64,000 nt of DNA, taken from contig JAVKIP010000006.1 in assembly GCA_031459385.1 (NCBI GenBank), forward strand, positions 101,715 through 165,714, given 5' to 3'. The stretch comes from Candidatus Fervidifonticultor secundus (lineage in GTDB: Bacteria; Sysuimicrobiota; Sysuimicrobiia; Sysuimicrobiales; Humicultoraceae). A program made the position numbers and the translations under genes. The notes beneath the pieces are model-generated. The model made no database searches. It was not told the DNA's origin and worked only from the letters and a program-made list of their open reading frames with translations. Of the stretch, positions 246-64,000 are shown piece by piece. The stretch's first letter is position 1, and the number at the start of each line of letters is the position of its first letter.

Positions 246-296
246 CCCGGCACTACCCGATATAATGGTCCTGTCACTCCCTCGCCGAGGTGGACC

Positions 297-1847: not shown

Positions 1848-2034
1848 AGCGCGATCAGGTGCCCGTCGCCCGGCGATCTGGCCGGCAGGGGCGTGCAGAG
1901 TCCAGTGTCAGTCACCATTGGGCGGCGTTCCGGGCGGCGCACCCGTCCAGGCCCGGCCCCAGCGCCGGCGCTTCGCTGGCGCGCGGCCGGCGCGGAAGGT
2001 CCGGGGTGTCCCGGTGGTGTATACTCGTGGACAC

Positions 2035-2892
2035 ATGGAGACCCAGGCCGGGCCCGAGGTGTCCCGCGCAGCGCCCGCGTACGACGGCGATGAGGGCGAT
2101 CGCTTTTCGTTCTCCAAGTTCGCCGCGCACCCGTTCTTCAGGGAAGTCAACGAGTGGCTGGTGGCCCGGGCCAGCATTCGCCCCGGCGCCGACGTCGTCG
2201 ACCTGGGCTGCGGGCCCGGGGCCGTGACCGAGATCATCCTGCGTCACCTGGGCACCCCGCCGGCGGGCCGGGTGTTCGCCGTCGACCCCTCGGCCTCGGC
2301 GCTGCGGCTGGCGGCGCAGCGCATCCAGTCGGCGATCGTCAGGTTCATCCAGGGGACGGCCGAGCGGATCAGCAGCCTGGTACCGCAGGTGGACACCGTG
2401 GTCTTCTGCAACGCGATCCACCTGGTACCGGACAAGACTCAGGTCGTGGCGGGCGTGAGCAAGGTCGTCCGCCCCGGCGGCGTGTTCGCCTTCAACACGA
2501 CGTTTTTCAGCGGCGCCTACCCGGCCGACACCTACCGGTTCTACAAGCTGTGGGTCCTGCGCGCGGTGCGCTGGCTGAAAGACCGCGGCCACACCGTCGC
2601 CCGGGGCGTCAAGGCCACGGCGATGCAGTGGCTGTCGCCCGAGGACTACCGCGCGCTGTTGGCCGCCCACGGGTTCGGTCAGACGGAGATCGAGTTCCAG
2701 GAGAAGCGGCTCACCTGCCAAGCCTGGGAGGACATCAGCGAGTTCTCCATGTTCATCGAGGGAGCGCTGCCGGGGGTTCCGCTGGAGGTCGGCGCCGAGG
2801 CCCTGAAGGTGGGTGTGAGGGAGGCGTTCCGCGAGCTCAGCCTGCAGTCCGTCCCGCGCATCTGGCTCCAGGCCATCGCCCGGCGGGTCTAG
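2035..2892 (+). CDS. Class I SAM-dependent methyltransferase
   Basis: VVDLGCGPG motif I, VRPGGVF; start taken at ATG 2035, just after TATACT (2020-2025). Confidence 0.85.
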   Translation: METQAGPEVSRAAPAYDGDEGDRFSFSKFAAHPFFREVNEWLVARASIRPGADVVDLGCGPGAVTEIILRHLGTPPAGRVFAVDPSASALRLAAQRIQSAIVRFIQGTAERISSLVPQVDTVVFCNAIHLVPDKTQVVAGVSKVVRPGGVFAFNTTFFSGAYPADTYRFYKLWVLRAVRWLKDRGHTVARGVKATAMQWLSPEDYRALLAAHGFGQTEIEFQEKRLTCQAWEDISEFSMFIEGALPGVPLEVGAEALKVGVREAFRELSLQSVPRIWLQAIARRV

Positions 2893-2916
2893 CCCCCGAT
2901 CGGTGCCGCACCGTCG

Positions 2917-3675
2917 TTGGACCTGACTGCGCAGGTGGCCTTGGTCACGGGCGGATCGTCCGGCATCGGCCGGGCGGTGGTCCATGCCCTGGCCCGGGCT
3001 GGGGCCGCGGTGGCCTTCACCTACCGCACCAACGCCGCCGGCGCGGAGGCTGTCGTAGCCGACCTGGCGGATGTGGCGCCCGTCCTGGCCATGGCGGGCG
3101 ACGTCGGCGCGGAGGCCGACGTCGCACGGGTCGTGGCCGCCACCGTCGAGCGCTTCGGCCGCCTCACCATCGTGGTCAACAACGCCGGGATCATCCGCGA
3201 TGCCCTGGCTCTGCGCATGACGCCCGCCGACTGGCAGGCGGTGCTCGACGTGAACCTCTCCGGCGCGCTGCGCGTCTGCCGGCACGCAGTGCCGCACCTG
3301 ACCGCGGCCGGCGGCGGCCGCATCATCAACATCGCCTCCATCGCCGGCGTCGCGGGCAGCGCGGGCCAGGCCAACTACTCCGCCGCCAAGGCCGGGCTCA
3401 TCGGCCTGACGGAGGTACTGGCGCTGGAACTCGCGCCGCGCGGCATCACCGTGAACACCGTTGCCCCGGGCGCCATCGACGCCGGCATCGTCGCGACCCT
3501 GCCCGAGGAGCAGCGCCAGCGCCTGATCGAGGTGATCCCCCTGGGGCGCATGGGCACGGCCGCGGAGGTAGCGGCCGCGGTGGCCTTCCTGGCCAGCCCC
3601 CAGGCGAGCTTCATCACCGGGCAAACCCTCATCGTCGACGGGGGCGCGACGATCCGCGCCTGGCGATCTGCCTGA
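2917..3675 (+). CDS. SDR family oxidoreductase, FabG-like
   Basis: TGGSSGIG, NNAG, YSAAK catalytic motif. Confidence 0.88.
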   Translation: MDLTAQVALVTGGSSGIGRAVVHALARAGAAVAFTYRTNAAGAEAVVADLADVAPVLAMAGDVGAEADVARVVAATVERFGRLTIVVNNAGIIRDALALRMTPADWQAVLDVNLSGALRVCRHAVPHLTAAGGGRIINIASIAGVAGSAGQANYSAAKAGLIGLTEVLALELAPRGITVNTVAPGAIDAGIVATLPEEQRQRLIEVIPLGRMGTAAEVAAAVAFLASPQASFITGQTLIVDGGATIRAWRSA

Positions 3676-3840
3676 CCCGCCGGCCCGTGGCGCCATCGCC
3701 GTCTTTGCCGCGGCGGTTGCCCCCGGGCCGCCGCCACACGCAGGAGGTTCATCCCACATGGTGAAACAGACGAAGGCCTCGCCGGGATCACCCGGGGAGA
3801 TCCACGCGGGAGGCTGTCAGATCTCCAACGGAGGGTCGAG

Positions 3841-5400
3841 ATGACACGAGACCTGTCCAGCCGTGCCGGTGTCCTGCTCGCCATTCTGGTCCTGGTACTG
3901 GCGGCACTGCCCGCAGCCGCACAGCAGCCAGCGCCGCGCCGGGGTGGGGCGCTGCGCATCGCGCACATCGGCGAACCACCCACCCTCGACCAGCACTGGA
4001 CCACCGCCGCCATCACGGGGCACATCATGCACCACGTCAACGAGGGGCTCTTCGCCCTCAACAGCAAGTTCGAGCCCAGGCCCATGCTGGTGGAGAAGTG
4101 GACGACGAGCGGCGACCGGCTGACCTACACCTTCACCCTGCGGCGGGGGATCAAGTTCCACAACGGGAAGGACCTCACCGCCGACGACGTCGTGGCGTCG
4201 CTGCAGCGCTGGGGGCGCATCGCCACCCGCGGCCGGGCGCTGTTCGCCAACGTGGTCTCCCTCACCGCGTCCGACCCGCTCACGGTGGTCATGCGGCTGC
4301 GCGAGCCCTACGGCCTGCTGCTGGTGGACCTGGCGCTGCCCGGGCAGTCCGCCGTGATCTTCCCCAAGGAGGTCGTAGACGAGGCCGGGACGGGTCAGGT
4401 GCGGCGCTTCATCAGCACCGGACCGTACCGGTTCATCGAGCACCTGCCCGACCGGCACATCCGGCTCGACCGGTTCGACGGCTACCAGGCCCGCACCGAG
4501 GAGCCGGACGGTACCGCGGGCCGCAAGCACGCCTACGCCGATTCGATCTACGTCATCCCCGTGCCCGACGCCGCGGTGCGCATCGCGGGCGTCAAGCGCG
4601 GCGAGTACCACTTTGCCGAGACGGTGCCGCCGGACGAGTACGACCGGCTGCGCACCGACCGCGACCTGGTGCCCTACGTGACCGAGATCCCCAACTGGCT
4701 CACGGCGGTCTTCAACAACCGCCAGGGCCTGATGGCTAACACCAAGATCCGCCAGGCGTTCCAGGCGGCTCTCGATCACGAGGCGGTCATGCGGGCCGCC
4801 TACGGCAACCGGCGGTTCTGGCGGCTCGACCCCGGGCTGATGCCCAAGGAGCACTACATGTGGACCGACGCGGGCAAGGAGTTTTTCAACCAGAAGAACC
4901 CGGCCCGCGCCCGACAGCTCCTGGCCGAGGCCGGCTACCGGGGCGAGCCCGTGCGGTGGATCACCACCATGGAGTACGTCGCCTACGGCACCGCGGCCCA
5001 GGTGGTCAAGCCGATGCTGGAACAGGCCGGCTTCACCGTCGACCTGCAGGTGGTGGACTGGGCGACGCTGGTGCAGCGGCGGGCCCGGCCCGAGCTGTGG
5101 GACGTCTTCAGCACGGCCTTCTCCTTCGTGCCCGATCCGGTGTTCCTCCTGGCCCTCCAGCCCACCTGGCCGGGCTGGTTCGACAACCGGGACCTGAACG
5201 CGATGATGACCCTGATGCGCCGCCACGCGGATCCCAAGGTGCGCAAAGAGATCTGGGCGCGGGCGCAGAAGCTCTGGTACGAGCAGGCGGGCAGCATCAA
5301 GTTCGGCGACTACTTCCTGCTCCACCTGCACCGACGGGAACTGAAGGGGTATACCAACCTGCCGACGCACGTCTGGTGGAACGCCTGGCTGGAGCGCTAG
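3841..5400 (+). CDS. Peptide/nickel ABC substrate-binding protein (family 5)
   Basis: Signal peptide; YTFTLRRGIKFHNGKDLTADDVVASL and TGPY motifs. Confidence 0.92.
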   Translation: MTRDLSSRAGVLLAILVLVLAALPAAAQQPAPRRGGALRIAHIGEPPTLDQHWTTAAITGHIMHHVNEGLFALNSKFEPRPMLVEKWTTSGDRLTYTFTLRRGIKFHNGKDLTADDVVASLQRWGRIATRGRALFANVVSLTASDPLTVVMRLREPYGLLLVDLALPGQSAVIFPKEVVDEAGTGQVRRFISTGPYRFIEHLPDRHIRLDRFDGYQARTEEPDGTAGRKHAYADSIYVIPVPDAAVRIAGVKRGEYHFAETVPPDEYDRLRTDRDLVPYVTEIPNWLTAVFNNRQGLMANTKIRQAFQAALDHEAVMRAAYGNRRFWRLDPGLMPKEHYMWTDAGKEFFNQKNPARARQLLAEAGYRGEPVRWITTMEYVAYGTAAQVVKPMLEQAGFTVDLQVVDWATLVQRRARPELWDVFSTAFSFVPDPVFLLALQPTWPGWFDNRDLNAMMTLMRRHADPKVRKEIWARAQKLWYEQAGSIKFGDYFLLHLHRRELKGYTNLPTHVWWNAWLER

Positions 5401-51489: not shown

Positions 51490-51746
51490 GGCCGTAGGAG
51501 TGTGTTCCCCGCCGACGCCGGGGCGCCTGCAGGGTGCAGACCGGGTTTCTCCGTGGGCCCGGGCTCGGGCTGCCCGGATCTCCCGATGGCCGGTGGTCTC
51601 CTGGTGGCACGAGAGCCCACGCGCCCCCACGCGGACACCGCGGCCGGCGCCTCAAGCGCAGGACGCGAGTGTAGGAGACGCGTACGTGCCCGCAGAAGCC
51701 GTCGAGCGATGCCATGTGGCGCGCGGCCCGTCGCCTGCGGGATCCG

Positions 51747-53753
51747 GTGAGCACGGCTCCGCCGCAGGTCGTCCTCCATCCCGGTCTGCGGCCGGTCCTC
51801 GCCGAGGTCGGCGAGGTGTCGTCCGGTCCGATCACACCGGCCCGTTTTCAGCGGGAGGCTCTGGCGGCGGTGGCGCACGAGGACGTGCTGGTCGTGGCGC
51901 CGACCGGTAGCGGCAAGACCTGGATCGCCGAGGAGGCGATGGCTGCCCTGCTGGCCCAAGGCCAGACGGCGTGGTACACCACGCCGCTGAAGGCCCTCTC
52001 CAACCAGAAGTTCCGGCAGTTCCAGCGCCGCTTCGGCGAAGAAGCCGTCGGCCTGCTCACCGGCGAGCGGCGGATCAACGCCCGGGCACCACTGATCGTG
52101 GGCACCACCGAGATCCTGCGCAACATCCTCTACGACGGCGCCGGCATCGGTCTGATCGTGCTCGACGAGGCCCACTACCTGGGCGAGGAGGAGCGGGGAA
52201 CGGCCTGGGAGGAGATTTTGCTGCTGGCCGCGCCGACCACGCGACTGCTGCTGCTGTCGGCGTCGATCCCCAACGCTGAGGAACTGGCAGGGTGGCTCGA
52301 ACGCGTCCGCGGGCGGCGCCCGCGCGTCGTCCGCGAGGACGAGCGGCCGGTGCCCCTGCGCCTCCTGCTGGTCGACGCCACCGGGCGCCTGCTGCCACCG
52401 GCGCTGGCCGGGCGCACGCGTACCGCCCAGCGCCGGCCCGGCTGGCTGCGCGACCTGCTGCGCCAGCTCGAGGCCGCGAATCTGCTGCCGGCGATCCTGT
52501 TCTTCCCGTCGCGCCGCCAGTGCGACGAAGCCGCGCGCGAACTGGCGCTGCTGCGGCTGCCGGGCGCCGAGGACCGCGCGCGGGCCCTGGCCCGGTGGGA
52601 AGCGGAGTACCCCACGCTGCTTGGCCATCGCTTTCGGCACACGCTGATCCAGAGCGGCGTCGCGCCCCACCACGCCGGGCACCTGATGGGCTGGCGCCTG
52701 GCGGTGGAAGACCTGCTGGCGCGGGGGCTCGTGCGGGCCGTGGCGGCTACCACCACGCTCGCCAGCGGGCTCGACGTGCCGGCGCGCACCGTCGTGCTCT
52801 CGACGCTGGTGCGCAACAGCCCGCAGGGCCCGGTACCGCTGTCGGTCACCGAGTTCCAGCAGATGACCGGCCGTGCCGGCCGCCGCGGCCGCGACCGCGT
52901 CGGAGTGGTGGTGATTCCTGCGTCGAGCCGTCAGGAGGCCGAGCTTGGCCTCAGCCTGGCTGACGCCGACCCCGAGCCCGTCACCTCGGCGTTCACGCCG
53001 TCGTACACGCAGGTCCTGAACCTGCTGGCCCGGCGCGACTTGCAGGCGGCGCTCGGGGAGGTGCAGCGGTCGCTGGCGGCCTACCAGGGCCTGCTGGGCC
53101 GGCCGCCACGCCTGCCGCGCCGGCTGCCCGGCGGACGCGTCGCGCAGGCAGTGGCCGGGGCCCGCGACGGTGTCACGGCCGTCTTCTTGCTGCGCGCGGC
53201 CGTGCTGCAGCACCTGGGCTACCTCGACGCCGACGCGCGGCCGACGGCCGACGGCCGGTGGGCCATGCGCCTGCGGCACCCGCGCCTGCTGATCCTGGCC
53301 GAGCTGGTCCGCCGGCGCCACCTCCCCGACACCGCCCCCCGCCTGGCAGCCGTGGCCGCGGCGCTGGCCACCGAGCGGGCTCCGCGGGCGGGCGGCACCG
53401 GCGTGCGGCTGGCCGGCCTCGCGCAGATCGTGCACGACGTAGACCGCCTGGAACGCGAGATGCACCTGCCGGCCGACCCGATCGTCGACGAGTTCCGCGT
53501 CGAGTGGGATCGCCAGCGGCGCCGGCCGGTGCCCTCGCCCGCCGAGCGCCGGGCCCACGCGGTCGAGGCGTGGGCGAAGGGCGCCGAGTGGTTCCGCCTG
53601 GTGGCCGACGCCGACGTCGAAGAAGGCGACCTGCAACGCATCATCCTGCAGGCCGCAGAGGTGCTGATGCAACTGGAGGGGTTACCCCTGCCCGCCCTGC
53701 GGGCCCTGGCGCGCCGGGCGCGCGAGGCGCTGCTGCGGACGCCGATCGTGTGA
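51747..53753 (+). CDS. Ski2/HelY-like DEAH-box RNA helicase
   Basis: APTGSGKT, PLKALSNQK, DEAH, HHAG, QMTGRAGRRGRD, EEGDL. Confidence 0.9.
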   Translation: MSTAPPQVVLHPGLRPVLAEVGEVSSGPITPARFQREALAAVAHEDVLVVAPTGSGKTWIAEEAMAALLAQGQTAWYTTPLKALSNQKFRQFQRRFGEEAVGLLTGERRINARAPLIVGTTEILRNILYDGAGIGLIVLDEAHYLGEEERGTAWEEILLLAAPTTRLLLLSASIPNAEELAGWLERVRGRRPRVVREDERPVPLRLLLVDATGRLLPPALAGRTRTAQRRPGWLRDLLRQLEAANLLPAILFFPSRRQCDEAARELALLRLPGAEDRARALARWEAEYPTLLGHRFRHTLIQSGVAPHHAGHLMGWRLAVEDLLARGLVRAVAATTTLASGLDVPARTVVLSTLVRNSPQGPVPLSVTEFQQMTGRAGRRGRDRVGVVVIPASSRQEAELGLSLADADPEPVTSAFTPSYTQVLNLLARRDLQAALGEVQRSLAAYQGLLGRPPRLPRRLPGGRVAQAVAGARDGVTAVFLLRAAVLQHLGYLDADARPTADGRWAMRLRHPRLLILAELVRRRHLPDTAPRLAAVAAALATERAPRAGGTGVRLAGLAQIVHDVDRLEREMHLPADPIVDEFRVEWDRQRRRPVPSPAERRAHAVEAWAKGAEWFRLVADADVEEGDLQRIILQAAEVLMQLEGLPLPALRALARRAREALLRTPIV

Positions 53754-53776: not shown

Positions 53777-54691
53777 TCACTCGCCCGACGCCAGCCGCCC
53801 CAGCGCCCCCAGGGCCTCGCGCACGGCCGCCACCTCCTCCGGTGACGGCCGCCGCATCGGCAGCCGCGGCGGACCCACGTCGATCCCCGTGGCCAGGCGG
53901 ATCGCCTCGCGCAGCACCGGTATCGGATTGGTCCGGTGGCGCGTCAGCGTTCGGTGGAACGGCAGCAGCCGCAGGTGACCGGCGGTGGCCGCCGCCACCT
54001 GGCCCGCCAGGAACCGCTGGATCATGGCCCTGATGAGGTCGCCGACCACGTGCGCCCCGCCGCTCACGGCCCCGGCGCCACCCTGGGCCAGCACCTGGAG
54101 GATCATGGCGTCGTCGCCGCAGTAGACGTGCAGGCGGGGCGCCGCCCGCAGGTACTCGGACGCCTGGACGGGATGGGCACTGGCCTGGTCCTTGACGGCC
54201 ACGATGTTGGGGAACGCCGCCAGCCGCTCCAGGGTCTCGGGCGCCAAGTTGACACCGGTGAACAACGGGATGTTGTAGAGCATCACCGGGAGCGTCGTGG
54301 CGCGGGCCACGGCCGCGAAGTAGTGGAAGAGCTCGTCCTGGGTCGGCCGGCTGTAGTACGGCGTGATCACGGTGACCGCGTCGTACCCGAGCCGCTCGGC
54401 TTCCTGCGTGAGGACCACGGCGTCGCGGGTCGCCGCCGCGCCTGTCCCCGCCACCAGCGGCACGCGGTCGCCTGCCAGGGCCTTCACCCGCGCCAGCAGC
54501 CGCGCCCGCTCGTCGAGCGTCAGCACGTGAAACTCGCCCGTCGTGCCCCCCACGAAGAGGCTGTCCGCCATGCGCCGCTCGATCAGGTAGCCGACCAGGC
54601 GCTCGAGGGCGGCCTCGTCGATGCCACCGTCGGCGTCGAAGGGCGTGACGTGGGGCACGATCACCCGGCCCAGCCGCTCGACGATGCTCAT
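53777..54691 (-). CDS. DapA/N-acetylneuraminate-lyase family class I aldolase
   Basis: VTPF, GTTGE, TPYY, YNIP..TG, AVKD Schiff-base Lys. Confidence 0.88.
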   Translation of the reverse strand: MSIVERLGRVIVPHVTPFDADGGIDEAALERLVGYLIERRMADSLFVGGTTGEFHVLTLDERARLLARVKALAGDRVPLVAGTGAAATRDAVVLTQEAERLGYDAVTVITPYYSRPTQDELFHYFAAVARATTLPVMLYNIPLFTGVNLAPETLERLAAFPNIVAVKDQASAHPVQASEYLRAAPRLHVYCGDDAMILQVLAQGGAGAVSGGAHVVGDLIRAMIQRFLAGQVAAATAGHLRLLPFHRTLTRHRTNPIPVLREAIRLATGIDVGPPRLPMRRPSPEEVAAVREALGALGRLASGE

Positions 54692-54747
54692 CTTCTCCTC
54701 CGATGCGGGCACCGGTCCCCGGCTGGCACGAGTGCGCAGCCGCGTGC

Positions 54748-55725
54748 TCAGGGTTCCAGGACCACGTGCCGGATCTCCCGTCGCAGCGCCGTGTACGCGA
54801 CGTGCACCCGGCCGGCGCCGTCGACCACGACCGCAGGGTACGAGTACTCCCCCGGGCCCTCCTCCAGCACCAGCAGCGGCGTCCACGTGGCCCCGCCGTT
54901 GACGCTCTCCGCCAGGCAAAGGGGGGAGCGCAGCTCCCATTGCATCGGATCCCGCCCGCGGTCGGTGTGGTTGTACGCGAGCCACAGGCGGCCGTCGGGC
55001 AGGCGCGCCATGTCGATGCCGGCGTTGGGGTTGGGCAGTTCGGTGGGGTGTGGCGCTGACCAGGTGTAGCCGCCATCAGCGCTCTCCGTCGCCCAGATGC
55101 GGCCGGCCCTGGTGCGCATGAGCATCAGCAGCCGGCCCGGCCTCCCCAGCACCAGCGTGCCCTGGATCATGGCCACTCCGGTGCCGGCGCCGATCGCCAG
55201 GTCGTCGAACACCCAGGCGGTGCCATGCCGCGCGACGTCGAGGCGCGCGAGCCCTACCTGCCAGCGTACCTCGTCGTACACCGGCAAGAGCAGCGTGGTC
55301 CCAAGCCGCAGGGGTTTGTTCTTGGTCAGGACGCCCGCGCGGTCGAGCAGCAGCATCTCGTCCGACCAGGTCTGCCCGCCGTCAAAAGAGACGCGCGCGC
55401 ACGGCTTGCCCCCGGTGCACCACGCGCCCCAGACGCGGAAGTAGGCCAGCCAGAGCACACCGGGTGCTCCGGCGAACAGCACCGGGTTCCCGCACGGGCG
55501 CCCATCGGCCGGAGCGACCAGCGCTGGCGGCGACCATGCGGACGCCCCGGCCTCCAGCCGCGCCACGTAGATGCCGGAGTCGGGCAGCCCTTCAGCCGTG
55601 CCGCCGAACCAGGCGCCCAGCAGGCTGCCATCGGGCACGGGCAGCAGCGTGGCCCCGTGGCAGAACGCCGTGGGGAGCGGATTGGTCATCGCCTGACGCC
55701 CCACGACCCGCGGCGCTGTGGTCAT
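54748..55725 (-). CDS. BNR/Asp-box sialidase-fold protein, no obvious signal peptide
   Basis: Asp boxes SFDGGQTW, SADGGYTW, SVNGGATW; MRTR, RSPL, EYSYP. Confidence 0.85.
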   Translation of the reverse strand: MTTAPRVVGRQAMTNPLPTAFCHGATLLPVPDGSLLGAWFGGTAEGLPDSGIYVARLEAGASAWSPPALVAPADGRPCGNPVLFAGAPGVLWLAYFRVWGAWCTGGKPCARVSFDGGQTWSDEMLLLDRAGVLTKNKPLRLGTTLLLPVYDEVRWQVGLARLDVARHGTAWVFDDLAIGAGTGVAMIQGTLVLGRPGRLLMLMRTRAGRIWATESADGGYTWSAPHPTELPNPNAGIDMARLPDGRLWLAYNHTDRGRDPMQWELRSPLCLAESVNGGATWTPLLVLEEGPGEYSYPAVVVDGAGRVHVAYTALRREIRHVVLEP

Positions 55726-55809
55726 GGCCCCCCGCACCTCCGCCCGCAGGGGCGGGGCCCCGCCGCCCTGACGGGCCCTTCCGGCCGAGACATCGCCACG
55801 TGGGCCGCC

Positions 55810-56631
55810 CTACCGGTGCGCGGTCATGGTGATGCCGCGGATGATGGCCTGCTGGAGGGTCAGGAACAGCACCAGGGCCGGCAGCGCCGCCAGGGCCGCG
55901 CCGGCCATGAGGATGCCGTAGTCGATGTCGTACGCGCCCTGCAGGGCCCGCAGGCCGATGGGCAGCGTGAACATCTGGGGCGACGACAGGGCGATCATCG
56001 ACCAGAAGAACTCGTTCCAGGCAAAGGTGAACATGTAGATCACCAGGGCCGCCAGCGCCGGCTTCGCCAGGGGCACGATGATGCTGAGCAGGATCCGGAC
56101 GTTGCCGGCGCCGTCCACCCGCGCGGCGTCGTCCAGCTCGGTGGGAATGTTGAGAAAGAACTGGCGCAGCAGGAAGATGCCGAGGGGCATACCAACCATG
56201 GGCAGGAAGACGGCCGGATAGGTGTTTAGCAGGTGCAGGCGGTTCATGAGGAAGTAGAGCGGGATGACGTTCACTTCCAGCGGGATGAGCATCGACGAGA
56301 GGAAGATCAGGAAGAGGACGTCGCGTCCCCGCCACTGCAGCCGCGAGAAAGCGAACGCCGCTGGCACCGAGACCAGGGTCGAGAGGACCGTGGTGGCCGT
56401 GGCCACCACCAGGCTGTTGACCATCCACCGGGTGAAGGGCCATCGGGTCAGCACCACGTGCACGTGGTGCAGCGTGGGCTCCCGCGGGATCCACCGGGGC
56501 GGCAGGGCGAAGATCTCGGGAGCCGGTTTCAGGCCCGTGGCGAACATCCAGGCGATGGGACTCAGCCACAGGACCAGCAACCCCGCCATCACGACCAGCA
56601 CTGCCCCGGCCAGCAGGCGCCCGGCCCTCAC
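55810..56631 (-). CDS. Carbohydrate ABC permease (MalG type)
   Basis: IPTELDDAARVDGA, WNEFFW. Confidence 0.92.
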   Translation of the reverse strand: MRAGRLLAGAVLVVMAGLLVLWLSPIAWMFATGLKPAPEIFALPPRWIPREPTLHHVHVVLTRWPFTRWMVNSLVVATATTVLSTLVSVPAAFAFSRLQWRGRDVLFLIFLSSMLIPLEVNVIPLYFLMNRLHLLNTYPAVFLPMVGMPLGIFLLRQFFLNIPTELDDAARVDGAGNVRILLSIIVPLAKPALAALVIYMFTFAWNEFFWSMIALSSPQMFTLPIGLRALQGAYDIDYGILMAGAALAALPALVLFLTLQQAIIRGITMTAHR

Positions 56632-57650
56632 AGCGCCGTCCCGAACCCCAGCCAGCGGAAGGCGACCAGGGTGAGTCCCAGGATGATCACGAACAGCACC
56701 ACGCCCACCGCCGCGGCCTGCCCCATCTCGAGATACTCGAACCCGAAGCGGTAGAGGTACAGCGCCAGCACCTCCGAGGCGCGCCCGGGCCCCCCGGCGG
56801 TCATGATGAGCACCTGCCCGAAGACGATGAACCCCGAGATCGTGGTGAGCACCAGCGCGAAAAGCACCGCTGGCTTCAGCAGGGGCAGCATGATCGCCAC
56901 GAAGATGCGCGCGCCGGAGGCGCCGTCAATACGCGCGGCCTCGTAGAGCTCGTCCGGGATATCCTCCAGCGCGGCCCGGAACAGGACCATGCGGTAGCCC
57001 GCCAGCCACCACGTGGTGGCCAGGGCGATGGCCGGCAGGACCCACCGCGGCTCGTTGAGGAAGACCGGCGGGCCGACTCCCCACCCCCGCAGCACCAGCA
57101 GCACGATACCGAAGTCGGGGTCCAGCAGCCACCGCCAGACCAGCCCCACCACCGAGACTGTCAGCAGGTAGGGGAAGAAGAACCCGGCTTCCATCCAGCG
57201 CACCGCCGGCGTCCCGCGGTAGGTGAAGAGGAACACGGCCAGCAACAGCCCGGTGCCCACGACCAGGGGAATGGCCAGGGCTGCGAACTCGAGGGTGTTG
57301 CCCAGCGCGTTCCAAAAGCGGGGATCCCTGGCCAGCGCCAGGTAGTTGCGCGCGCCGGCAAACCGGGCGTCTCCCAGCGGGTCCCACCGGTACAGGCTGA
57401 TGACCACGCCGTAGAGCACCGGGCCCAGGCGGAAGAGGATCCAGAACGCGGCGAAAGGCAACAGGAACATGACGATCTCGCCGGCCTGCAGCCACCGCCC
57501 GCGCCGGGTGCGCCGGCGCAGCGGCCCCGCCTCCACCGGCGCCGCAACCGCCCGCGAGACCGCGGCGGGCAGGCCGACCGTCCGGGCTCCCGCCTGGGAG
57601 ACAGGAGGGGCGCCCGGGGGTCCGGGGCCCCTCCGCCACAGCTGCGGCAT
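56628..57650 (-). CDS. Carbohydrate ABC permease (MalF type; start uncertain)
   Basis: IPDELYEAARIDGAS, MTAGGP. Confidence 0.9.
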   Translation of the reverse strand: MPQLWRRGPGPPGAPPVSQAGARTVGLPAAVSRAVAAPVEAGPLRRRTRRGRWLQAGEIVMFLLPFAAFWILFRLGPVLYGVVISLYRWDPLGDARFAGARNYLALARDPRFWNALGNTLEFAALAIPLVVGTGLLLAVFLFTYRGTPAVRWMEAGFFFPYLLTVSVVGLVWRWLLDPDFGIVLLVLRGWGVGPPVFLNEPRWVLPAIALATTWWLAGYRMVLFRAALEDIPDELYEAARIDGASGARIFVAIMLPLLKPAVLFALVLTTISGFIVFGQVLIMTAGGPGRASEVLALYLYRFGFEYLEMGQAAAVGVVLFVIILGLTLVAFRWLGFGTAL

Positions 57651-57655
57651 GTCCG

Positions 57656-58975
57656 CTATCCCGCCAGCACGCGGTTGACCTCCGCCTCGGCGCGGGCGAG
57701 CGCCTCGCGCGGGGCGAGCCGGAGGTTGTACGCCTCCTGAATGTACGGTTCGATGGCCGCGTGCACCTGCGGCGCCTTCTCGTGGATCAGCGGGTAGTGC
57801 ACGTAGCCGCGGTTGGCCATATCGGTGAACTTGTTGAGGGCCAGCCGCCACGAGTCGGACTCCAGCAGCGCCCGCGAGCGCTGCGCGGGTAGGTACGCCG
57901 GAATGTGTCCGCCGTAGATGCCCCACTCGTCCGAGTGCTCGTTGATCCACTTGATCGTCCGGATGGCCGCCACCAGCATCTCGTTGGTCACGCGGTCGGG
58001 CCGCTGGCGCGGGATCACCAGGTTGTGGCTGTCGCCCCAGGTCACGGCCCGCTCGAAGAACTTCGGCACGTAGTGGAACCCGAAGTTCACCCTGCTGTCC
58101 TTCGCGGTGGGCAGGTACCAGTTACCGGCCAGCAGCATGCCCAGTTGCCCGGCGGCGAACTGCTTGAACCCGTCGGTCCCGGGCTGATTCCAGCCGCGGC
58201 GGATCATGGTCACCAGGTAGTCCAGCGCCCGCAGGCCGCGCTCGTCGTTGAACGCCGCGCGCTTCCCGTCGGGCGTCAGCAGCTCGCCGCCCTGCCCCCA
58301 GACCAGGATCTCCCAGGCGCGGCGAACCTTGCGGGGCAGCGCGTCTTCGGCCGGGTGGAAGGCGAAGCGGCCGGTGCGCGTACGCAGCGCCTCGCAGGCC
58401 CGCTCGAACTCTTCGCGGGTCTCGGGCGCACGATCCGGGTCCAGACCCGCCTGCCGGAACAGGTCCTTGTTGTACCACAGCCCCCACATGTGCGAGTCCA
58501 GCGGGACCAGGTAGCGCCTGCCCTGGTAGACGCCGGCCTCCCACACGTTCTTGGTGTACTGCGGCGCCCGGATGTCGGCGAGCTCCAGCAGGTTGCCCGC
58601 CCGCGACTCCTCCAGCGGCGTCAACGCCCGGTAGACGTCCATCACCCGGCTGGAGTGGCAGATGCCGATCTGCGGCGCGTTGCCCGCCCCCACGGCGGCG
58701 AACAGCTGCGCGTAGTACTCGGCCCACTGCCCCTGCAGCAGGTTCAGCTTCACCGTCCGGCTCTCGGCGTTGAACCGCCGGACGATGCGCTCCATGGCCG
58801 CGGCGTCGCCGCTGTGGAAGAGCGTGTAGTAGTCCAGGGTAATGGCGCGCTCCTGGGCCGCTACCCACGGCAGGCGCCACGTCCCTGTCGACGCCGCCAG
58901 CGCCGTCGCCGCTGCCGTCTTGAGCAAGGCGCGCCGGCTCACCGTTCCATCGTGGCCCGCATCGTTTCCCCTCAT
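57656..58975 (-). CDS. Tat-exported carbohydrate ABC substrate-binding protein
   Basis: SRRALLK Tat motif; LWYNKDLFRQAGLDP. Confidence 0.9.
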   Translation of the reverse strand: MRGNDAGHDGTVSRRALLKTAAATALAASTGTWRLPWVAAQERAITLDYYTLFHSGDAAAMERIVRRFNAESRTVKLNLLQGQWAEYYAQLFAAVGAGNAPQIGICHSSRVMDVYRALTPLEESRAGNLLELADIRAPQYTKNVWEAGVYQGRRYLVPLDSHMWGLWYNKDLFRQAGLDPDRAPETREEFERACEALRTRTGRFAFHPAEDALPRKVRRAWEILVWGQGGELLTPDGKRAAFNDERGLRALDYLVTMIRRGWNQPGTDGFKQFAAGQLGMLLAGNWYLPTAKDSRVNFGFHYVPKFFERAVTWGDSHNLVIPRQRPDRVTNEMLVAAIRTIKWINEHSDEWGIYGGHIPAYLPAQRSRALLESDSWRLALNKFTDMANRGYVHYPLIHEKAPQVHAAIEPYIQEAYNLRLAPREALARAEAEVNRVLAG

Positions 58976-58982
58976 CTCCTCG

Positions 58983-60761
58983 TCACCTCCGCTGCTCGCG
59001 CTCCTGCGCGGTCTCGTCGTCTCCGGCGTCCCCCGCGCGCACGTCGACCCCCCGTGCCGGCGCCCCGGCGGCCTGCGCGCGCACGTCGGCCCGCAGCGCC
59101 CGCAGGCGGCGCATCACCTCCGATCCCCCTTCGCCGAAGTGCCGTGCCAGGTCCAGGTACTCGCGGTAGAGTGCGTCGTACACCCGCTGCGCCCGCGCGC
59201 CGGGCCGAAAGGTCACGTAGTCGCGGTCGCCCATTCGCTCCGTGGCGGCGATCATGCCGTCGAGCCCACCGCGTGCCGCGCCTGCCGCGGCGGCCGCGTA
59301 GATGGCCGCCCCGACCGCCGACGCGTGCCGGGCCCGCGAGACCAGCACGTCGCGGCCGAGGACGTCGGCCGTGATCTGCAGCAGCAGCGGGCTGCGTTCG
59401 GCCAGGCCACCGCAGGCGATGACCTCCTGTACGGGAACGCCGCCGGCCTCGAACGTGTCGATGACGCGCCGGGTTCCGTAGGCGGTCGACTCCAGCAGCG
59501 CCCGGTAGATCTCGTGCGGCTCGGTGGCGATGGTGAGGCCCACCAGCAGCCCCGAGAGCTCGGCGTCTACCAGCGGCGTCCGGCAGCCGTTCCACCAGTC
59601 GAGCGCCAGCAACCCGGCCTCTCCCGGCCGGAGCGCCGCCGCCTGCGCCTCCAGGGCTGCGAAGAGCGCCGCCTCGTCCACCGCCCCGGCGGCGCCCGCA
59701 CCCCGGCCGGCACCGCGCGCGCTGACCACCCGGTCGGGCACGCTGGTACGCACGTACCACTGAAAGATGTCGCCCACCGAGACCTGCCCCGCCTCGTAAC
59801 CGAACAGCCCCGGCAGGATGCCGTCTTCCACCACGCCCGCGATCCCCCGGACGCTGCGGCGTCGGGGATCGACCAGCAGGTGGCAGGTCGACGTGCCCAT
59901 GATCGCCACCAGCCGGCCGGGCTCGTGCACTCCGACGGCCGGCACCGCTGCATGCGCGTCGATGACGGCCACGGCGACGGGCGTGCCCGCGCGCAGGCCC
60001 GTGCGGCGTGCCCAGGCGGCCGTGAGCTCTCCCGCGGCGGTCGCCACGGGCTGCGGGTCCCCCAGACGGTCGAGCAACGAGGGCAACGCCGGGTCGAGGG
60101 CGGCCCAGAAGGCCGCGGCAGGATACCCTTCCTGCTTCTGCCAGTGGGCCTTGTAGCCGGCCTGACAGGCGCTGCGCACCTCGCGGCCAGTCAGCTGCCA
60201 GACGATCCAGTCGCCGCCCTCGATCCAGCGCGCGGCGGCCCGCATGACCTCCGGGGCCTCGGCCAGCACCTGCCACCCCTTGGCCCACAGCCACTCCGAC
60301 GAGGTCTTGCCGCCGTACCAGCAGAGGAACCCGCCGCCGGGGCGGTCCGCCGCGGCATTGATGCGGTCCGCGTAGGGCTGCGCGGCGTGGTGCTTCCACA
60401 GCTTGGGCCACGCGTGGGGCTCGTGCTGGTAGTCGGGCAGGGTGCACAGGGGCGTCCCATCGGCGGTGGTGGGGAGCACCGTGCACGACGTGAAGTCCAC
60501 GCCGATGCCCGCGATGGCGTCTGGCGGCACGGCGGCCGCCATCGGACGGAGCAAGGCGTCCAGCGCCTGCAGCCAGTCGTCGGGGTGCTGCAGCGCCCAG
60601 TCCGGCGGCAGCACCCGGGTGCCACCGGGCAAGGCTCGATCGATGACGCCGTGCGGGTACGCCCAGGTGGCGGTGGCGGCCAGCGTACCGTCAGCCACCC
60701 GCACCAGCACCGCCCGGGCCGACTCCGTGCCGAAGTCGATACCGATGGTGTAGGTGGCCAT
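58983..60761 (-). CDS. araB: Ribulokinase (FGGY family)
   Basis: IGIDFGTES, DFTSCT, KLWKHHAAQ, IDAH, MGTSTC, YEAGQ..VGD, LDWWNGCRTPL. Confidence 0.9.
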   Translation of the reverse strand: MATYTIGIDFGTESARAVLVRVADGTLAATATWAYPHGVIDRALPGGTRVLPPDWALQHPDDWLQALDALLRPMAAAVPPDAIAGIGVDFTSCTVLPTTADGTPLCTLPDYQHEPHAWPKLWKHHAAQPYADRINAAADRPGGGFLCWYGGKTSSEWLWAKGWQVLAEAPEVMRAAARWIEGGDWIVWQLTGREVRSACQAGYKAHWQKQEGYPAAAFWAALDPALPSLLDRLGDPQPVATAAGELTAAWARRTGLRAGTPVAVAVIDAHAAVPAVGVHEPGRLVAIMGTSTCHLLVDPRRRSVRGIAGVVEDGILPGLFGYEAGQVSVGDIFQWYVRTSVPDRVVSARGAGRGAGAAGAVDEAALFAALEAQAAALRPGEAGLLALDWWNGCRTPLVDAELSGLLVGLTIATEPHEIYRALLESTAYGTRRVIDTFEAGGVPVQEVIACGGLAERSPLLLQITADVLGRDVLVSRARHASAVGAAIYAAAAAGAARGGLDGMIAATERMGDRDYVTFRPGARAQRVYDALYREYLDLARHFGEGGSEVMRRLRALRADVRAQAAGAPARGVDVRAGDAGDDETAQEREQRR

Positions 60762-60767
60762 CGTGGG

Positions 60768-62195
60768 TCAGCGCGCCACAGGCCCGAAGACGCGCGGTTC
60801 GACGCCGGCCATCCGGCAGAACCACACCAGGTCGGCGACCCAGTCGCCGTAGACCCCGTGAATGTGGTTGGAGTCGTATTCGGCCAGGAACTCCTCCGCC
60901 GGTACCCGCAGCCGGGCGAAGGCGTGCGGCCACTCGGGGGTGGTGGCCGCCACCATGCGCGCGGTGACCTCCGGCGGGAACTCCACCAGGTCGGCCGGGA
61001 CGATGGCCATCCAGTACCGGCCGTTGCGGCGAGCCAGGCGCGCCAGCGTCACCGGGCCGGGCGCCGCCACGTGCATCACCGAGGCGCCGCCTGCGGGGAA
61101 GTAGATGACCGCCGGGTAGAGATGCACGCGCGGGAGGTTCACGGCGGGGTCGAACGACCGCCCGGCAAAGTACGTGGCGTGCTGGCCGGAGTTGCAGAGG
61201 TCCCAGACGTCGGCGGCGGCGGCGTAGTGCCGCACGTCGGCGAACAGCACCGGGGTGCCGGCCAGGTGCTTGAAGATCTCCATGGTCAACGCCCCGTCGC
61301 TGTCGGCCTCGGTGGCACAGACGATGGGATCGTGGGGGCCTTCCCAGTCGTACGGGTCATTCAGGAACGCCTCGGCGACGTCCATGGTGGCAAAATGATT
61401 GGTCATCTCCGGCTGACCCTTGATCCCGCAGAAGTCCAGCCGCCACTCGTCCACCAACTCCCGCACCGCGTGGTAGGCCTTGATCTGGCGGCGCAGCACC
61501 TCGGGAGTCAGCTTCTTCCCGTCGTAGTGGATCGTCGCGCCGTGCCGCTGCAGCCAGGCGATTCCGGCGTCCGCCCGGCTGTCGGGGACCTGTGCGGCGC
61601 GCCGGACGATCTCGAACTGGTCGATGTGCTCGATGTCGATGCCGAAGTCGCGCCGCCACTGGTCCAGCGCCGGCACGGCGGTGTACATCCCCATGGACCG
61701 GCCGCCGATGACACCGTACACCTCGCCGCGCAGCCGGTTCTTCGTCACCGCCGGGCGCAGAAACTGCAGCAGTCGTTGGAAAACCTCCTCGTCGTCGACG
61801 TCGCCCGAGACGCGCCCGCAGAACACGCCCACCTGGTCCAGGCTCCCGGCCGCCGCCAGCATCGCCACCAGCCCGGGGTACTGCGGGTTCACGTTGGAGA
61901 ACAGCAGGATCGGGCCGGGGACGAACTGCGCGGCGACCGCCGAGAAGTGTGGCCAGGCCCAGATGGCGTAGTTGAAGACCGTGGCGTCTGTGCCCTGGGC
62001 CGCCAGGTAGCGCCCCTCGCGCTGGGCCAGGTCAGTGGTCCAGATGATCTCGCGCCCGGTGACGACCTCCCAGCCCGCCGCCCGCAGCCGCGCCACCAGG
62101 CGGTCCTGGAACTGCTGGCCGAGCGGAAGGAGTTCTTGGTGGACATGGGGGCGACCGTCGGAGAAGGTCAGGACTCCCACCTTGGGCGGTCTCAT
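60768..62195 (-). CDS. L-fucose/D-arabinose isomerase family protein
   Basis: FSDGR, WAWP, SMGM, CATEADSDGALTM, NSG, WPHAF, SNHIH as in FucI-type isomerases. Confidence 0.85.
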   Translation of the reverse strand: MRPPKVGVLTFSDGRPHVHQELLPLGQQFQDRLVARLRAAGWEVVTGREIIWTTDLAQREGRYLAAQGTDATVFNYAIWAWPHFSAVAAQFVPGPILLFSNVNPQYPGLVAMLAAAGSLDQVGVFCGRVSGDVDDEEVFQRLLQFLRPAVTKNRLRGEVYGVIGGRSMGMYTAVPALDQWRRDFGIDIEHIDQFEIVRRAAQVPDSRADAGIAWLQRHGATIHYDGKKLTPEVLRRQIKAYHAVRELVDEWRLDFCGIKGQPEMTNHFATMDVAEAFLNDPYDWEGPHDPIVCATEADSDGALTMEIFKHLAGTPVLFADVRHYAAAADVWDLCNSGQHATYFAGRSFDPAVNLPRVHLYPAVIYFPAGGASVMHVAAPGPVTLARLARRNGRYWMAIVPADLVEFPPEVTARMVAATTPEWPHAFARLRVPAEEFLAEYDSNHIHGVYGDWVADLVWFCRMAGVEPRVFGPVAR

Positions 62196-62228
62196 CGCTC
62201 GCCTCCGGTGCGCCGCCGGGCCGCTAGT

Positions 62229-62244
62229 GTGATAACGTTTTCAC
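62229..62244. promoter_or_regulatory. LacI-family operator 1
   Basis: Palindrome GTGATAACGTTTTCAC with central CG. Confidence 0.8.
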
Positions 62245-62357
62245 TTATTCGCGGTCCCGCCACCGGCTTCCTGCCCGAGATCGGAGCCCGGACGGGCACC
62301 GCCGCCAGCTTACGCGCGGCGGCCAAGCGGTGGCAATCAGGCCGAGAGCTGATCCCG

Positions 62358-62387
62358 GGCGCAGGGCACACCGGCGCAGGGCACACC
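62358..62387. repeat. 15-bp tandem direct repeat, 2 copies
   Basis: GGCGCAGGGCACACC twice. Confidence 0.85.
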
Positions 62388-62430
62388 GCAGCGTCCGGCA
62401 GGGATCGCCGTCCTGCCAACGAATCCACGG

Positions 62431-62444
62431 TGAGAACGTCCTCA
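62431..62444. promoter_or_regulatory. LacI-family operator 2 (autoregulatory)
   Basis: TGAGAACGTCCTCA, similar to operator 1, 13 bp upstream of the lacI ATG. Confidence 0.65.
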
Positions 62445-62457
62445 GATCGGAGCACCC

Positions 62458-63531
62458 ATGCCCACGCTCAAGGACGTCGCCCGGCACGCCGGCGTCTCGG
62501 TGCCCACTGCCGCCCGGGCGCTGGGCGGCTACGGACACGTGAGCCCGGCGGCCCGGGACCGGGTACTGCGCGCGGCCCGGATCCTGGACTACCAGGCCAA
62601 CGCCATCGCCAGGAGCATGATCAAAGGCCGCACCCACACCCTGGGCGTGATCGTCTCCGACAACGCCAACCCGTTCTTCGCGTCCGTGGTCCGGGGGATC
62701 GAGGACGTGGTCCTCGCCCGCGGCTACACCATCATGCTCTGCAACACCGACGAGGACCCGGCGAAAGAAGCGCTCTACATCGCCATGATCCGCCAGAAGC
62801 GGGCGGACGGCGCCATCATCTCGCCGTCGCGGGGTGCCTCGAAGCTGCTACGGGCGCTCGCCGCCAGCGGCGTGCCGGTGGTGCAGGTGGATCGCCGGAT
62901 CCGCGGCCTGGCGGCAGACGCTGTCGTGTGCGACAACCGGGCCGGGGTCGCTGCCGCCGTCGCACACCTGGTGCGCCTGGGACACCGGCGCATCGGGATG
63001 ATCAGTGGCCCCCGGCAGGTCTACACGGGCCGCGAGCGCCTCGTCGCATTTCGGACCGCCCTGCGCCGCATGGGGCTGCCCGTCGTCGAACGCTGGATCC
63101 TGGAGGGCACGTTCAAGGAGGAGAGCGGGTACGAGCTGGCAGGTCGCTTCCTCGAGGACCGCCGCCGGCCCACCGCCATCTTCGTCGCCAACAACCTGAT
63201 GACGATCGGAGCCCTCCTGCGCCTGAAGGAGGCGGGGGTGCGCATCCCGCAGGAGCTGGCCGTGGTGGGCTTCGACGACATGGACTGGGCCCCGATCCTG
63301 ACCCCCCCGCTGACGGCCGTCGCCCAGCCCTCCTACGACCTGGGGCGGACCGCCGGCGCCATGCTGCTGGAGCGCCTGGAGACCGGCGCCGGGCGGCCCC
63401 GGACCGTGGTCCTCCAGCCTCGCTTGGTGGTCCGCGAATCCTGCGGGGCGGCCAGGCCGGCGCAGGCGGCAGGGGCCCGTGTCGTTCCCCCTCGCACTAT
63501 GGCAAAATCAAGTAAGAACCCGATTGGGTAG
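62458..63531 (+). CDS. LacI family transcriptional regulator
   Basis: TLKDVARHAGVSVPTAARAL HTH, NPFF, VVGFDD, PPLTAV. Confidence 0.95.
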   Translation: MPTLKDVARHAGVSVPTAARALGGYGHVSPAARDRVLRAARILDYQANAIARSMIKGRTHTLGVIVSDNANPFFASVVRGIEDVVLARGYTIMLCNTDEDPAKEALYIAMIRQKRADGAIISPSRGASKLLRALAASGVPVVQVDRRIRGLAADAVVCDNRAGVAAAVAHLVRLGHRRIGMISGPRQVYTGRERLVAFRTALRRMGLPVVERWILEGTFKEESGYELAGRFLEDRRRPTAIFVANNLMTIGALLRLKEAGVRIPQELAVVGFDDMDWAPILTPPLTAVAQPSYDLGRTAGAMLLERLETGAGRPRTVVLQPRLVVRESCGAARPAQAAGARVVPPRTMAKSSKNPIG

Positions 63532-63627
63532 CGCCCCGGAGTTTCAGTAGCTTAATATTCCGGTAGACTCATGGTGACCTATGCCCCGACGCTTGTCGGG
63601 AGATGGAGCGTGCTGGAGGGATTGCGC

Positions 63628-64000
63628 ATGAAGACACCATCCCGCACCGCCCTCGCTATCGCGCTGGTCGCCCTGCTGCTGGCAAGCCTGGTCGGGATGA
63701 CCGCGGCCCAGCCGCGCCCCGGATGGCCGCGCTCGGTGACGATCGGGTCAGCCTCGATCGGTGGCGTCTACTTCGTCGTGGCCGGCGGCTGGGCGCGGGT
63801 GATCGGCGAGAAGATGGGCCTGCCGGCCACTAACCGCGTGACCGGTGGCCCGGTACAGAACATCCAGCTCGTGCAGACCAAAGAGATCGAGCTGGGCATG
63901 ACGACCACCGGACCGCTCTTCGAAGCGCTCGCCGGCATCGGCGAGTTTAGGGGGCGCAAGATGGACGCCGTTCGCGTCATCTTCCCCATGTATACCTGCT
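63628..64000 (+). CDS. TAXI family TRAP transporter solute-binding subunit, 5' part (not in the ORF track)
   Basis: MKTPSRTALAIALVALLL signal; TIGSASIGGVYF, TGGPVQNIQLV; runs off the window end. Confidence 0.85.
   Translation, partial: MKTPSRTALAIALVALLLASLVGMTAAQPRPGWPRSVTIGSASIGGVYFVVAGGWARVIGEKMGLPATNRVTGGPVQNIQLVQTKEIELGMTTTGPLFEALAGIGEFRGRKMDAVRVIFPMYTC

Follow-up and report, generated by a model that had tools for sequence, protein, structure and literature searches.

The window analysed here, a stretch of 64,000 nucleotides from Candidatus Fervidifonticultor secundus, carries at positions 53777-63531 one plus-strand LacI gene divergent from seven minus-strand genes. The chances are about even that this cluster is an operon, under repressor control, for the breakdown of glycosides carrying an acidic 2-keto-3-deoxy sugar, with 3-deoxy-D-manno-octulosonate (Kdo) as the likeliest one. 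The more general part of this interpretation, namely that an acid sugar is split into pyruvate and an aldose, the latter then being used by an isomerase and a kinase, appears probable. The genome carrying the window (G000) is a metagenome-assembled genome (MAG) of 3.3 Mb with a completeness of 97.6% and a contamination of 5.5%. The window, with a G+C content of about 72%, forms the end of its contig C56, and the nearest relatives of the window proteins are found in hot-spring MAGs labelled Armatimonadota or Candidatus Sysuimicrobiota. Genomes, metagenome loci and contigs are designated below by numbers preceded by G, L and C, respectively. The cluster comprises the following features:

62458..63531, plus strand: gene of a LacI-family repressor (Pfam LacI plus Peripla_BP_1/3)
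62228..62245, no strand: candidate LacI operator, the near-palindrome TGTGATAACGTTTTCACT (sequence reading and similar sites in relatives)
60768..62195, minus strand: short-form FucI-like aldose-ketose isomerase, 475 aa (Pfam Fucose_iso_N1/N2/C)
58983..60761, minus strand: putative AraB-type ribulokinase of the FGGY family (NF003154, TIGR01234)
57656..58975, minus strand: solute-binding protein (SBP) of a CUT1-type ATP-binding cassette (ABC) transporter, with a twin-arginine leader (SBP_bac_1/SBP_bac_8)
56628..57650, minus strand: ABC permease 1, MalF/UgpA-like (BPD_transp_1)
55810..56631, minus strand: ABC permease 2, MalG/UgpE-like (BPD_transp_1)
54748..55737, minus strand: cytoplasmic six-bladed sialidase-fold BNR_2 protein, 329 aa (PF13088, 196 bits)
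53777..54691, minus strand: class I pyruvate aldolase of the dihydrodipicolinate synthase (DHDPS) family, 304 aa (PF00701, 259.6 bits)

All eight genes listed by an earlier interpretation made from the letters alone (the sequence-only reading) were recovered at these positions by domain and model matches, and its statement that araA, araD, fucA and fucK are missing from the cluster was borne out. From the isomerase to the aldolase the genes are separated by 6, 7, 5, -4, 72 and 56 bp; permease 1 starts with the ATG at 57650, 5 bp past the SBP stop, and the two permease genes overlap by 4 bp. A scan for promoters and terminators gave nothing above chance.

In the proposed pathway, Kdo glycosides would be scavenged from the lipopolysaccharide (LPS), capsules or pectin of other organisms, Kdo occurring in nearly all Gram-negative envelopes, in certain capsules and in the rhamnogalacturonan II of plants. 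The CUT1 ABC system would import a small Kdo-containing oligosaccharide, from which the cytoplasmic BNR_2 protein would free Kdo. The DapA-derived class I aldolase would then split Kdo into pyruvate and D-arabinose, the FucI-like isomerase would convert D-arabinose to D-ribulose, and the AraB-type kinase would produce D-ribulose 5-phosphate, which would enter the pentose-phosphate pathway without the need of an epimerase. The whole would be controlled by the LacI repressor, bound to the palindrome that precedes the isomerase gene. The individual reactions have precedents: Kdo aldolase (EC 4.1.2.23) forms pyruvate and D-arabinose, D-arabinose is among the sugars isomerised by FucI, and D-ribulose is also phosphorylated by E. 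coli AraB. Kdo is regarded as the best-fitting acid because its fragment, D-arabinose, suits a FucI-type isomerase followed by a ribulokinase, with no epimerase required. In G000 no credible KdsB was found (the best PF02348 match was partial, with 23 bits) and no credible KdsA either, the only KDO8P-synthase-like match reaching 123 bits against a cut-off of 314; any Kdo would therefore be exogenous and scavenged, and the organism itself may make neither Kdo nor LPS.

The aldolase scores above the cut-off of the dapA equivalog model TIGR00674 (240.1 versus 206.15 bits), which would be expected of a true DHDPS, an identity that the sequence-only reading had named as fatal to its proposal. Such identity is nevertheless ruled out, because Arg138 (E. 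coli DapA numbering) is missing and two of the seven DHDPS-family loci of G000 (C12 and C58) outscore the window aldolase and are better dapA candidates. At the Arg138 position, where the E. coli residue presumably binds aspartate semialdehyde, the motif YNIPLFT of the window aldolase has a Phe; the Arg is kept by E. coli DapA and by the C12 and C58 proteins (motif YNIPGRT), and occurs in none of the isomerase-linked DHDPS-family genes of the alignment, which took in E. coli DapA, NanA and YagE. The window aldolase retains the Schiff-base Lys (K161 of DapA, K165 of NanA), the Tyr of the YN motif and the Thr-Thr pair, with PF00701 spanning 289 positions. It does not satisfy the NanA models (158 versus 281 bits for NF003164, 143 versus 382 for TIGR00683), nor does it keep the sugar-binding residues of NanA (T167, Y190, D191, E192, S208), the corresponding columns reading Q, G, D, D, A, G in the aldolase versus T, G, Y, D, E, S in NanA. 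Its sequence marks it as a lyase derived from DapA in which Arg138 has been lost.

In a tree from a quick IQ-TREE search, from which the aberrant row L144_11655 was left out, the window aldolase clades (SH-aLRT 100) with the aldolases of L115, L132, L136 and L150, all of them loci with isomerase homologs, and the C12 DapA candidate is the sister of this clade (support 98). Orthologs with 61-68% identity were found in 5 of the 93 other genomes of the order, four of the five lying inside an isomerase-araB-ABC-BNR cluster at two different positions, that is, directly after the BNR gene in G026 and G029, and between araB and the SBP gene in G007 and G008. The same place in the cluster is occupied by another DHDPS clade in L013, L016, L138 and L161. 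Tandems of two different DHDPS-family genes, only one of which belongs to the window's clade, were observed in L132 (14287-16119) and L150 (7069-8851).

The isomerase shares only 23% identity with E. coli FucI, is considerably shorter (475 versus 591 aa), and does not reach the FucI equivalog models (NF008220, 89 versus 775 bits; TIGR01089, 77.5 versus 850). Its residues E296, D320 and H444 align with E337, D361 and H528 of E. coli FucI, presumably the catalytic or metal residues of that enzyme. The family, named "L-fucose/L-arabinose isomerase family" at NCBI, is 58-65% identical across phyla, having members in Acetothermia, Clostridia, Acidobacteria and Thermotogota-like MAGs. An 82%-identical ortholog adjoins FucA-like and FucK-like genes in G072, and a 57% homolog in L170 adjoins a fucosidase of glycoside hydrolase family 29 (GH29), an FGGY kinase and a DeoC-type aldolase; both settings fit a FucI-type specificity, covering L-fucose and D-arabinose. 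The kinase passes both ribulokinase equivalog cut-offs (635.2 versus 428 bits for NF003154, 615.8 versus 583.25 for TIGR01234), has ribulokinase 3qdk as its best PDB match (579 bits), and is thus predicted to be a ribulokinase of the AraB type. The isomerase, kinase and BNR genes are without paralogs in G000. A genome-wide tblastn search of G000 with E. coli AraA returned no match, and as for AraD its two full class II aldolase genes fall far under the cut-offs, with at most 55 bits on NF006047/TIGR00760 and 102.6 on NF005123 (cut-off 251). A search of a plasmid collection with the isomerase retrieved only relatives of at most 27.9% identity. Outside the cluster, at C6:69139-69786, G000 has a NanE-like gene whose product shares 49% identity with the ManNAc-6-P 2-epimerase of E. 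coli; no DHDPS-family gene adjoins it.

The association of these enzymes was examined in 80 metagenome loci with isomerase homologs, kept from a contig scan with an isomerase alignment and searched by tblastn with the window proteins, E. coli references and the aldolases and kinases of relatives, the variants being annotated with Pfam. An FGGY kinase was present in 49 of the 80 loci (within 300 bp in 41 of the 49), a DHDPS-family gene in 39 (within 6 kb in 37) and a BNR gene in 18. When only the 22 loci flanked by 5 kb or more on each side are counted, the kinase is found in 18, an aldolase within 6 kb in 12 and BNR in 9. Fifteen of the 18 BNR loci carried a DHDPS-family gene, the other three being contigs of 3.4-4.9 kb cut upstream. 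No locus matched E. coli AraD, FucA, AraA, FucU or FucO, even at an E-value of 1e-3. In the set of 94 genomes of the order, the isomerase occurs in 47 and a BNR ortholog (E below 1e-140) in 19, of which 18 are isomerase-positive; the unpublished G016 is counted in the isomerase, BNR, AraD and aldolase tallies, and the unpublished G024 was matched only in the AraD tally. None of the 94 genomes reached the cut-off of 389 of the araD model TIGR00760 (best scores 146.6 and 143.6 bits), so that, together with the 80 loci, there is no sign of the araD elsewhere that the sequence-only reading had seen as a threat to its proposal.

The transporter in the window is of the ABC type, with an SBP whose leader (SRRALL) scores 16.4 bits on the twin-arginine signal model TIGR01409, just under the cut-off of 16.7, and whose nearest PDB relatives are oligosaccharide SBPs with weak scores, one of them, 6rjy (E 7.6e-11), binding arabino-oligosaccharides. 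Variants of the cluster devoid of BNR have other carriers. A tripartite ATP-independent periplasmic (TRAP) system, DctPQM, accompanies the isomerase and aldolase in L132, L136 and L150; a tripartite tricarboxylate transporter (TTT), TctCBA, accompanies the isomerase, AraB and aldolase in L119, G009 and G047, where BNR is absent from that locus; and in L097 and L118 a polar-amino-acid-type ABC system stands with the isomerase and two DHDPS-family genes, together with an aminotransferase and a URO-D-like gene. TRAP and TTT systems carry carboxylates, and their presence in BNR-less variants suggests that the substrate is an acid sugar, split into pyruvate and an aldose. The TRAP SBP of L150 resembles sialic-acid proteins of the SiaP kind (E about 1e-49, identity 31-32%) about as closely as it does 4pf6, its best PDB match, which was presumably solved with bound Kdo; the AlphaFold2 (AF2) model of this SBP was poor, with a predicted local distance difference test (pLDDT) score of 55.

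In G009, the ABC and BNR module (L177) lies apart from a lacI-isomerase-araB-TctCBA-aldolase cluster (L178). The module of G009, a genome of a different genus, is 93-96% identical to that of the window, versus only 86-92% for G001, which belongs to the same genus as G000, with the G009 araB reaching just 63%, a contrast suggesting that hot-spring lineages have recently exchanged the transporter-glycosidase module.

The BNR_2 protein, a predicted six-bladed beta-propeller with Asp-boxes that matches PF02012 and PF13088, has neither a hydrophobic leader nor a signal peptide. Its AF2 model (pLDDT 93.8) retrieved GH33 sialidases as top Foldseek matches, with template modelling (TM) scores of 0.78-0.81 to Micromonospora and other sialidases. 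In 27 sequences reaching as low as 33% identity, H27, E49, E156, Q192, R208, R270, E297, Y300, Y315 and R319 are among the invariant residues. In a profile alignment to NanC, R208 falls on the Arg of "YMRT", Y300 on the Tyr of the sialidase YS(Y) motif and R270 near the third Arg; the Asp-bearing insertion (acid/base Asp) is absent from this alignment. The protein is thus predicted to have a sialidase fold and to keep some of the residues for carboxylate binding and nucleophilic attack, without being a canonical GH33 enzyme. Chain 5mqr, with the PDB molecule name "Beta-L-arabinobiosidase" and presumably corresponding to BT1020 with its GH143 domain, matched the BNR profile weakly (E 1.4e-5), and a protein atlas held only generic "sialidase family" clusters. 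Naming the substrate from BNR relatives of about 40% identity (34 loci of other phyla, 106 proteins scanned) was abandoned, their neighbourhoods being too heterogeneous. Two further observations concern single relatives. In L043, a contig of an Armatimonadia MAG, the genes lptF and lptG, which encode LPS export permeases, flank a 40%-identical relative (about 127-5331), and a BioY gene is also adjacent, an arrangement that may be due to chance. The BNR ortholog of G037 (C141:8176-9147) has one in-frame TGA, which may reflect a sequencing error, recoding or a pseudogene.

The LacI control put forward in the sequence-only reading has gained support from the candidate operator, as this palindromic element is conserved before the isomerase gene and rare in the genome. 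The element TGTGATAACGTTTTCACT is AT-rich and lies 33 bp upstream of the isomerase start; LacI orthologs of 61-88% identity adjoin the isomerase gene in related loci, and operator-like sequences with a consensus of about TGTGAkAACGTTmTCACA occur just upstream of this gene in at least 15 related loci (L012, L138, L145, L151, L176, L178, L180-L183, L186 and others). In G009 the same type of operator also precedes the stand-alone sbp-perm-perm-bnr module, unlinked to the isomerase. Only 3 sites within 3 mismatches of the operator exist in the whole 3.3-Mb genome. One of these, on C1 (3 mismatches), precedes a NagB-II/GlmS-like SIS gene and was set aside as probably belonging to another regulon. 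Another, the palindrome GGTGATAACGTTTTCACC (2 mismatches), is found in C23:96411-99268 (L212, 7001-9858), 68 bp upstream of a TRAP DctP-(DctQ)-DctM operon, near which an enolase-superfamily acid-sugar dehydratase is encoded on the opposite strand. The SBP of this operon is 68.6% identical to the product of the DctP gene just after lacI in G090 and is nearest to 4pdd and 4p9k, with SiaP only marginally behind; the C23 system is possibly a free-acid carrier of the same regulon.

Several observations weigh against Kdo as the substrate, or against a single pathway common to all these clusters. The genome G092 (locus L012), 96% complete, has the arrangement lacI-isomerase-araB-sbp-perm-perm-bnr, and its sole DHDPS-family gene is DapA-like (344 bits), with HpcH-family aldolase genes present and unlinked. 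An aldolase is also missing beside the cluster in G001 (within 6 kb downstream), L011, L012 and L014, and lies 6 kb away in G090. The isomerase-linked aldolases spread over at least five separate DHDPS-family clades and therefore need not share one substrate; the kinase type varies as well (AraB here, XylB-like in Acetothermia, PfkB in L141), and with several aldolase clades and several kinase families the substrates may differ between variants. In the BNR protein, the position of the FRIP Arg appears to read CHG, with the invariant His27 (an assignment by motif and spacing), and the invariant Gln192 seems to stand where sialidases have the Glu partner of the nucleophilic Tyr, both placements following presumed sialidase numbering and low-confidence columns. 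Two distant BNR relatives have neighbours suggestive of fucose, a canonical FucI together with GH28 in L042 and a fucosidase of GH29 in L075. Finally, a KdsB-like gene appeared in none of the loci examined.

The sequence-only reading emerges from this with some parts firmer than others. Its aldolase-isomerase-kinase logic is supported by comparative genomics, given an aldolase other than DapA, the linkage in clusters, the lack of AraD and the carboxylate carriers, while the choice of Kdo as the acid is inferred from the specificities of the FucI and AraB families. Its sialidase-fold assignment is upheld as regards the fold, by the AF2 model and the GH33 matches, and is weakened at the two catalytic positions that appear to deviate. 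The co-occurrence it expected of the enzymes is seen in the counts for kinase, DHDPS-family and BNR genes among the isomerase loci, and fails where G092, G001, L011 and L014 have no adjacent aldolase.

Among the other explanations, one would assign the operon to neutral D-arabinose or L-fucose glycosides, with the BNR_2 protein as a new glycosidase that frees the aldose for the FucI-type isomerase and the aldolase serving a second acidic moiety or an unrelated step. This is unlikely, yet it would accommodate the G092 cluster, which has no spare DHDPS-family gene; against this, such a gene is found in all 15 BNR loci not cut short, and the aldolase orthologs stay in the cluster even though their position changes. 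The fucose-related surroundings would also agree with it, since FucI and GH28 or GH29 genes lie near BNR relatives (L042, L075), fucosidase, FGGY kinase and DeoC-type aldolase genes near the L170 isomerase, and FucA-like and FucK-like genes are paired with the close ortholog of G072. The kinase of the window scores, however, as a ribulokinase and not as a fuculokinase, the operon has no FucA-type aldolase, and the same isomerase-kinase-aldolase set occurs with TRAP or TTT carboxylate carriers and no glycosidase. As to the BNR family, seemingly without two canonical sialidase residues, it keeps two Arg and a Tyr aligned with the carboxylate-binding and nucleophile positions of sialidases.

A rather improbable explanation retains the logic of the Kdo pathway and replaces the acid by Kdn, 3-deoxy-D-lyxo-heptulosaric acid (Dha), heptulosonate, an amino derivative or another ulosonic or 2-keto-3-deoxy acid, the aldehyde fragment of which would be the isomerase substrate. 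The five distinct clades of isomerase-linked aldolases, the tandem DHDPS-family genes of the TRAP loci L132 and L150, the aminotransferase, URO-D-like gene and polar-amino-acid-type ABC system of L097 and L118, and the marginally greater similarity of the C23 TRAP SBP to 4pdd and 4p9k than to SiaP would all be in line with such diversity. Kdo remains, nonetheless, the common natural acid with a retro-aldol product of the configuration handled by FucI-type enzymes (L-fucose/D-arabinose), and the kinases are of the pentulokinase type; from Kdn and Neu5Ac the products would be D-mannose and ManNAc, respectively, and neither sugar suits a FucI-plus-FGGY pair.

It is very unlikely that the operon serves L-arabinose or arabino-oligosaccharides by means of a non-canonical isomerase, AraB and an unrecognised epimerase, with the aldolase as an incidental dapA paralog. 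The kinase and aldolase scores above their ribulokinase and dapA equivalog cut-offs (240 versus 206 bits for the latter), the mention of L-arabinose in the NCBI family name of the isomerase and the arabino-oligosaccharides bound by the weak SBP relative 6rjy would be compatible with it. The aldolase, on the other hand, has no Arg138 and travels with the cluster, AraD at its cut-off was seen in 0 of 94 genomes and AraD-like or FucA-like matches in 0 of 80 loci, the class II aldolases of G000 are far below the AraD model cut-offs, and the carboxylate-transporter variants would be left unexplained. The canonical araBAD route is disfavoured because AraA was not found in G000, nor AraD in the 94 genomes or 80 loci.

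Two neighbouring genes delimit the cluster. At the aldolase end, a HelY/Ski2-like DEAD-box helicase gene with a DSHCT domain (51714-53753, plus strand) is convergent with the operon and bounds it; this neighbour is retained in L011 and G001, where the interval between the BNR and helicase genes holds no aldolase gene. Directly past lacI, positions 63571-63999 (plus strand) contain the 5' part of a TAXI-family TRAP SBP gene (NMT1_3, TIGR02122), which runs off the contig end.

Returning to Kdo, a broader proposal can be advanced tentatively, its chances lying somewhat under even: that the operon and its TRAP, TTT and ABC variants constitute the missing genetic basis of Kdo catabolism, the lyase being Kdo aldolase (EC 4.1.2.23), that the BNR_2 protein founds a new family of sialidase-fold Kdo-glycoside hydrolases with a His/Gln variant active site, and that bacteria without LPS feed on the envelopes of Gram-negative neighbours. 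If true, this would provide candidate genes for Kdo aldolase, for Kdo carriers and for a cytoplasmic Kdo glycosidase, and would explain the widespread family of short FucI-like isomerases. It would also reveal necromass recycling by uncultured hot-spring heterotrophs that apparently make no Kdo, and the swaps of carrier, kinase and aldolase type would offer a case study of pathway assembly by non-orthologous replacement.

Among known systems, the closest in design are the nan/sia sialic-acid clusters (sialidase, NanT/SiaPQM/SAT-type ABC, NanA, NanK, NanE), where a sialidase-fold enzyme frees the ulosonic acid and a lyase of the DHDPS/NAL family converts it to pyruvate plus an aldose, followed by a kinase and under a repressor; the SiaP-like TRAP carriers of the operon's variants add to the likeness. 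The nan/sia clusters differ in having NanK and NanE where a FucI-like isomerase and a pentulokinase are found here, and a NanA-like lyase instead of a DapA-derived one; moreover, the sialidase-fold protein of the window is cytoplasmic, seemingly with His and Gln at two canonical catalytic positions. Downstream of the lyase, the counterpart is the use of D-arabinose by the fucose enzymes of E. coli, which proceeds through FucI and then FucK/FucA, or through a D-ribulokinase in E. coli B. Both routes share a FucI-type isomerase followed by phosphorylation of D-ribulose, and G072 has a FucK/FucA-like version, whereas the window isomerase is short (475 aa), its kinase AraB-like and its operon devoid of FucA. 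For the BNR protein, the parallels are the Kdo hydrolase KdoH1/KdoH2, known from Francisella, Helicobacter and Legionella, and the GH143 Dha-hydrolase with which Bacteroides degrades rhamnogalacturonan II, likewise sialidase-like propellers acting on Kdo or Dha. These differ in facing the periplasm or the outside and in trimming LPS or pectin; KdoH2, compared here with BNR by description only, needs a membrane partner.

The lyase step itself has its precedent in the Kdo aldolase (EC 4.1.2.23) reportedly described by Ghalambor and Heath in 1966, which catalyses the same reaction as proposed for the window aldolase. Full-text literature searches, with subscription journals outside their scope, revealed no gene-level account of Kdo catabolism, uptake or aldolase. 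The passage on Kdo aldolase in a 2025 paper (PMC12199768) gives the EC number and references from 1966, 1968 and 1990 without naming a gene, and an engineered L-KDO aldolase is mentioned in PMC4016182. Set against these systems, the operon would be a further version of the "cut off, import, split" scheme known from nan clusters, and the Kdo interpretation, supported in part, would bring candidate genes for an enzyme for which no gene assignment was found.

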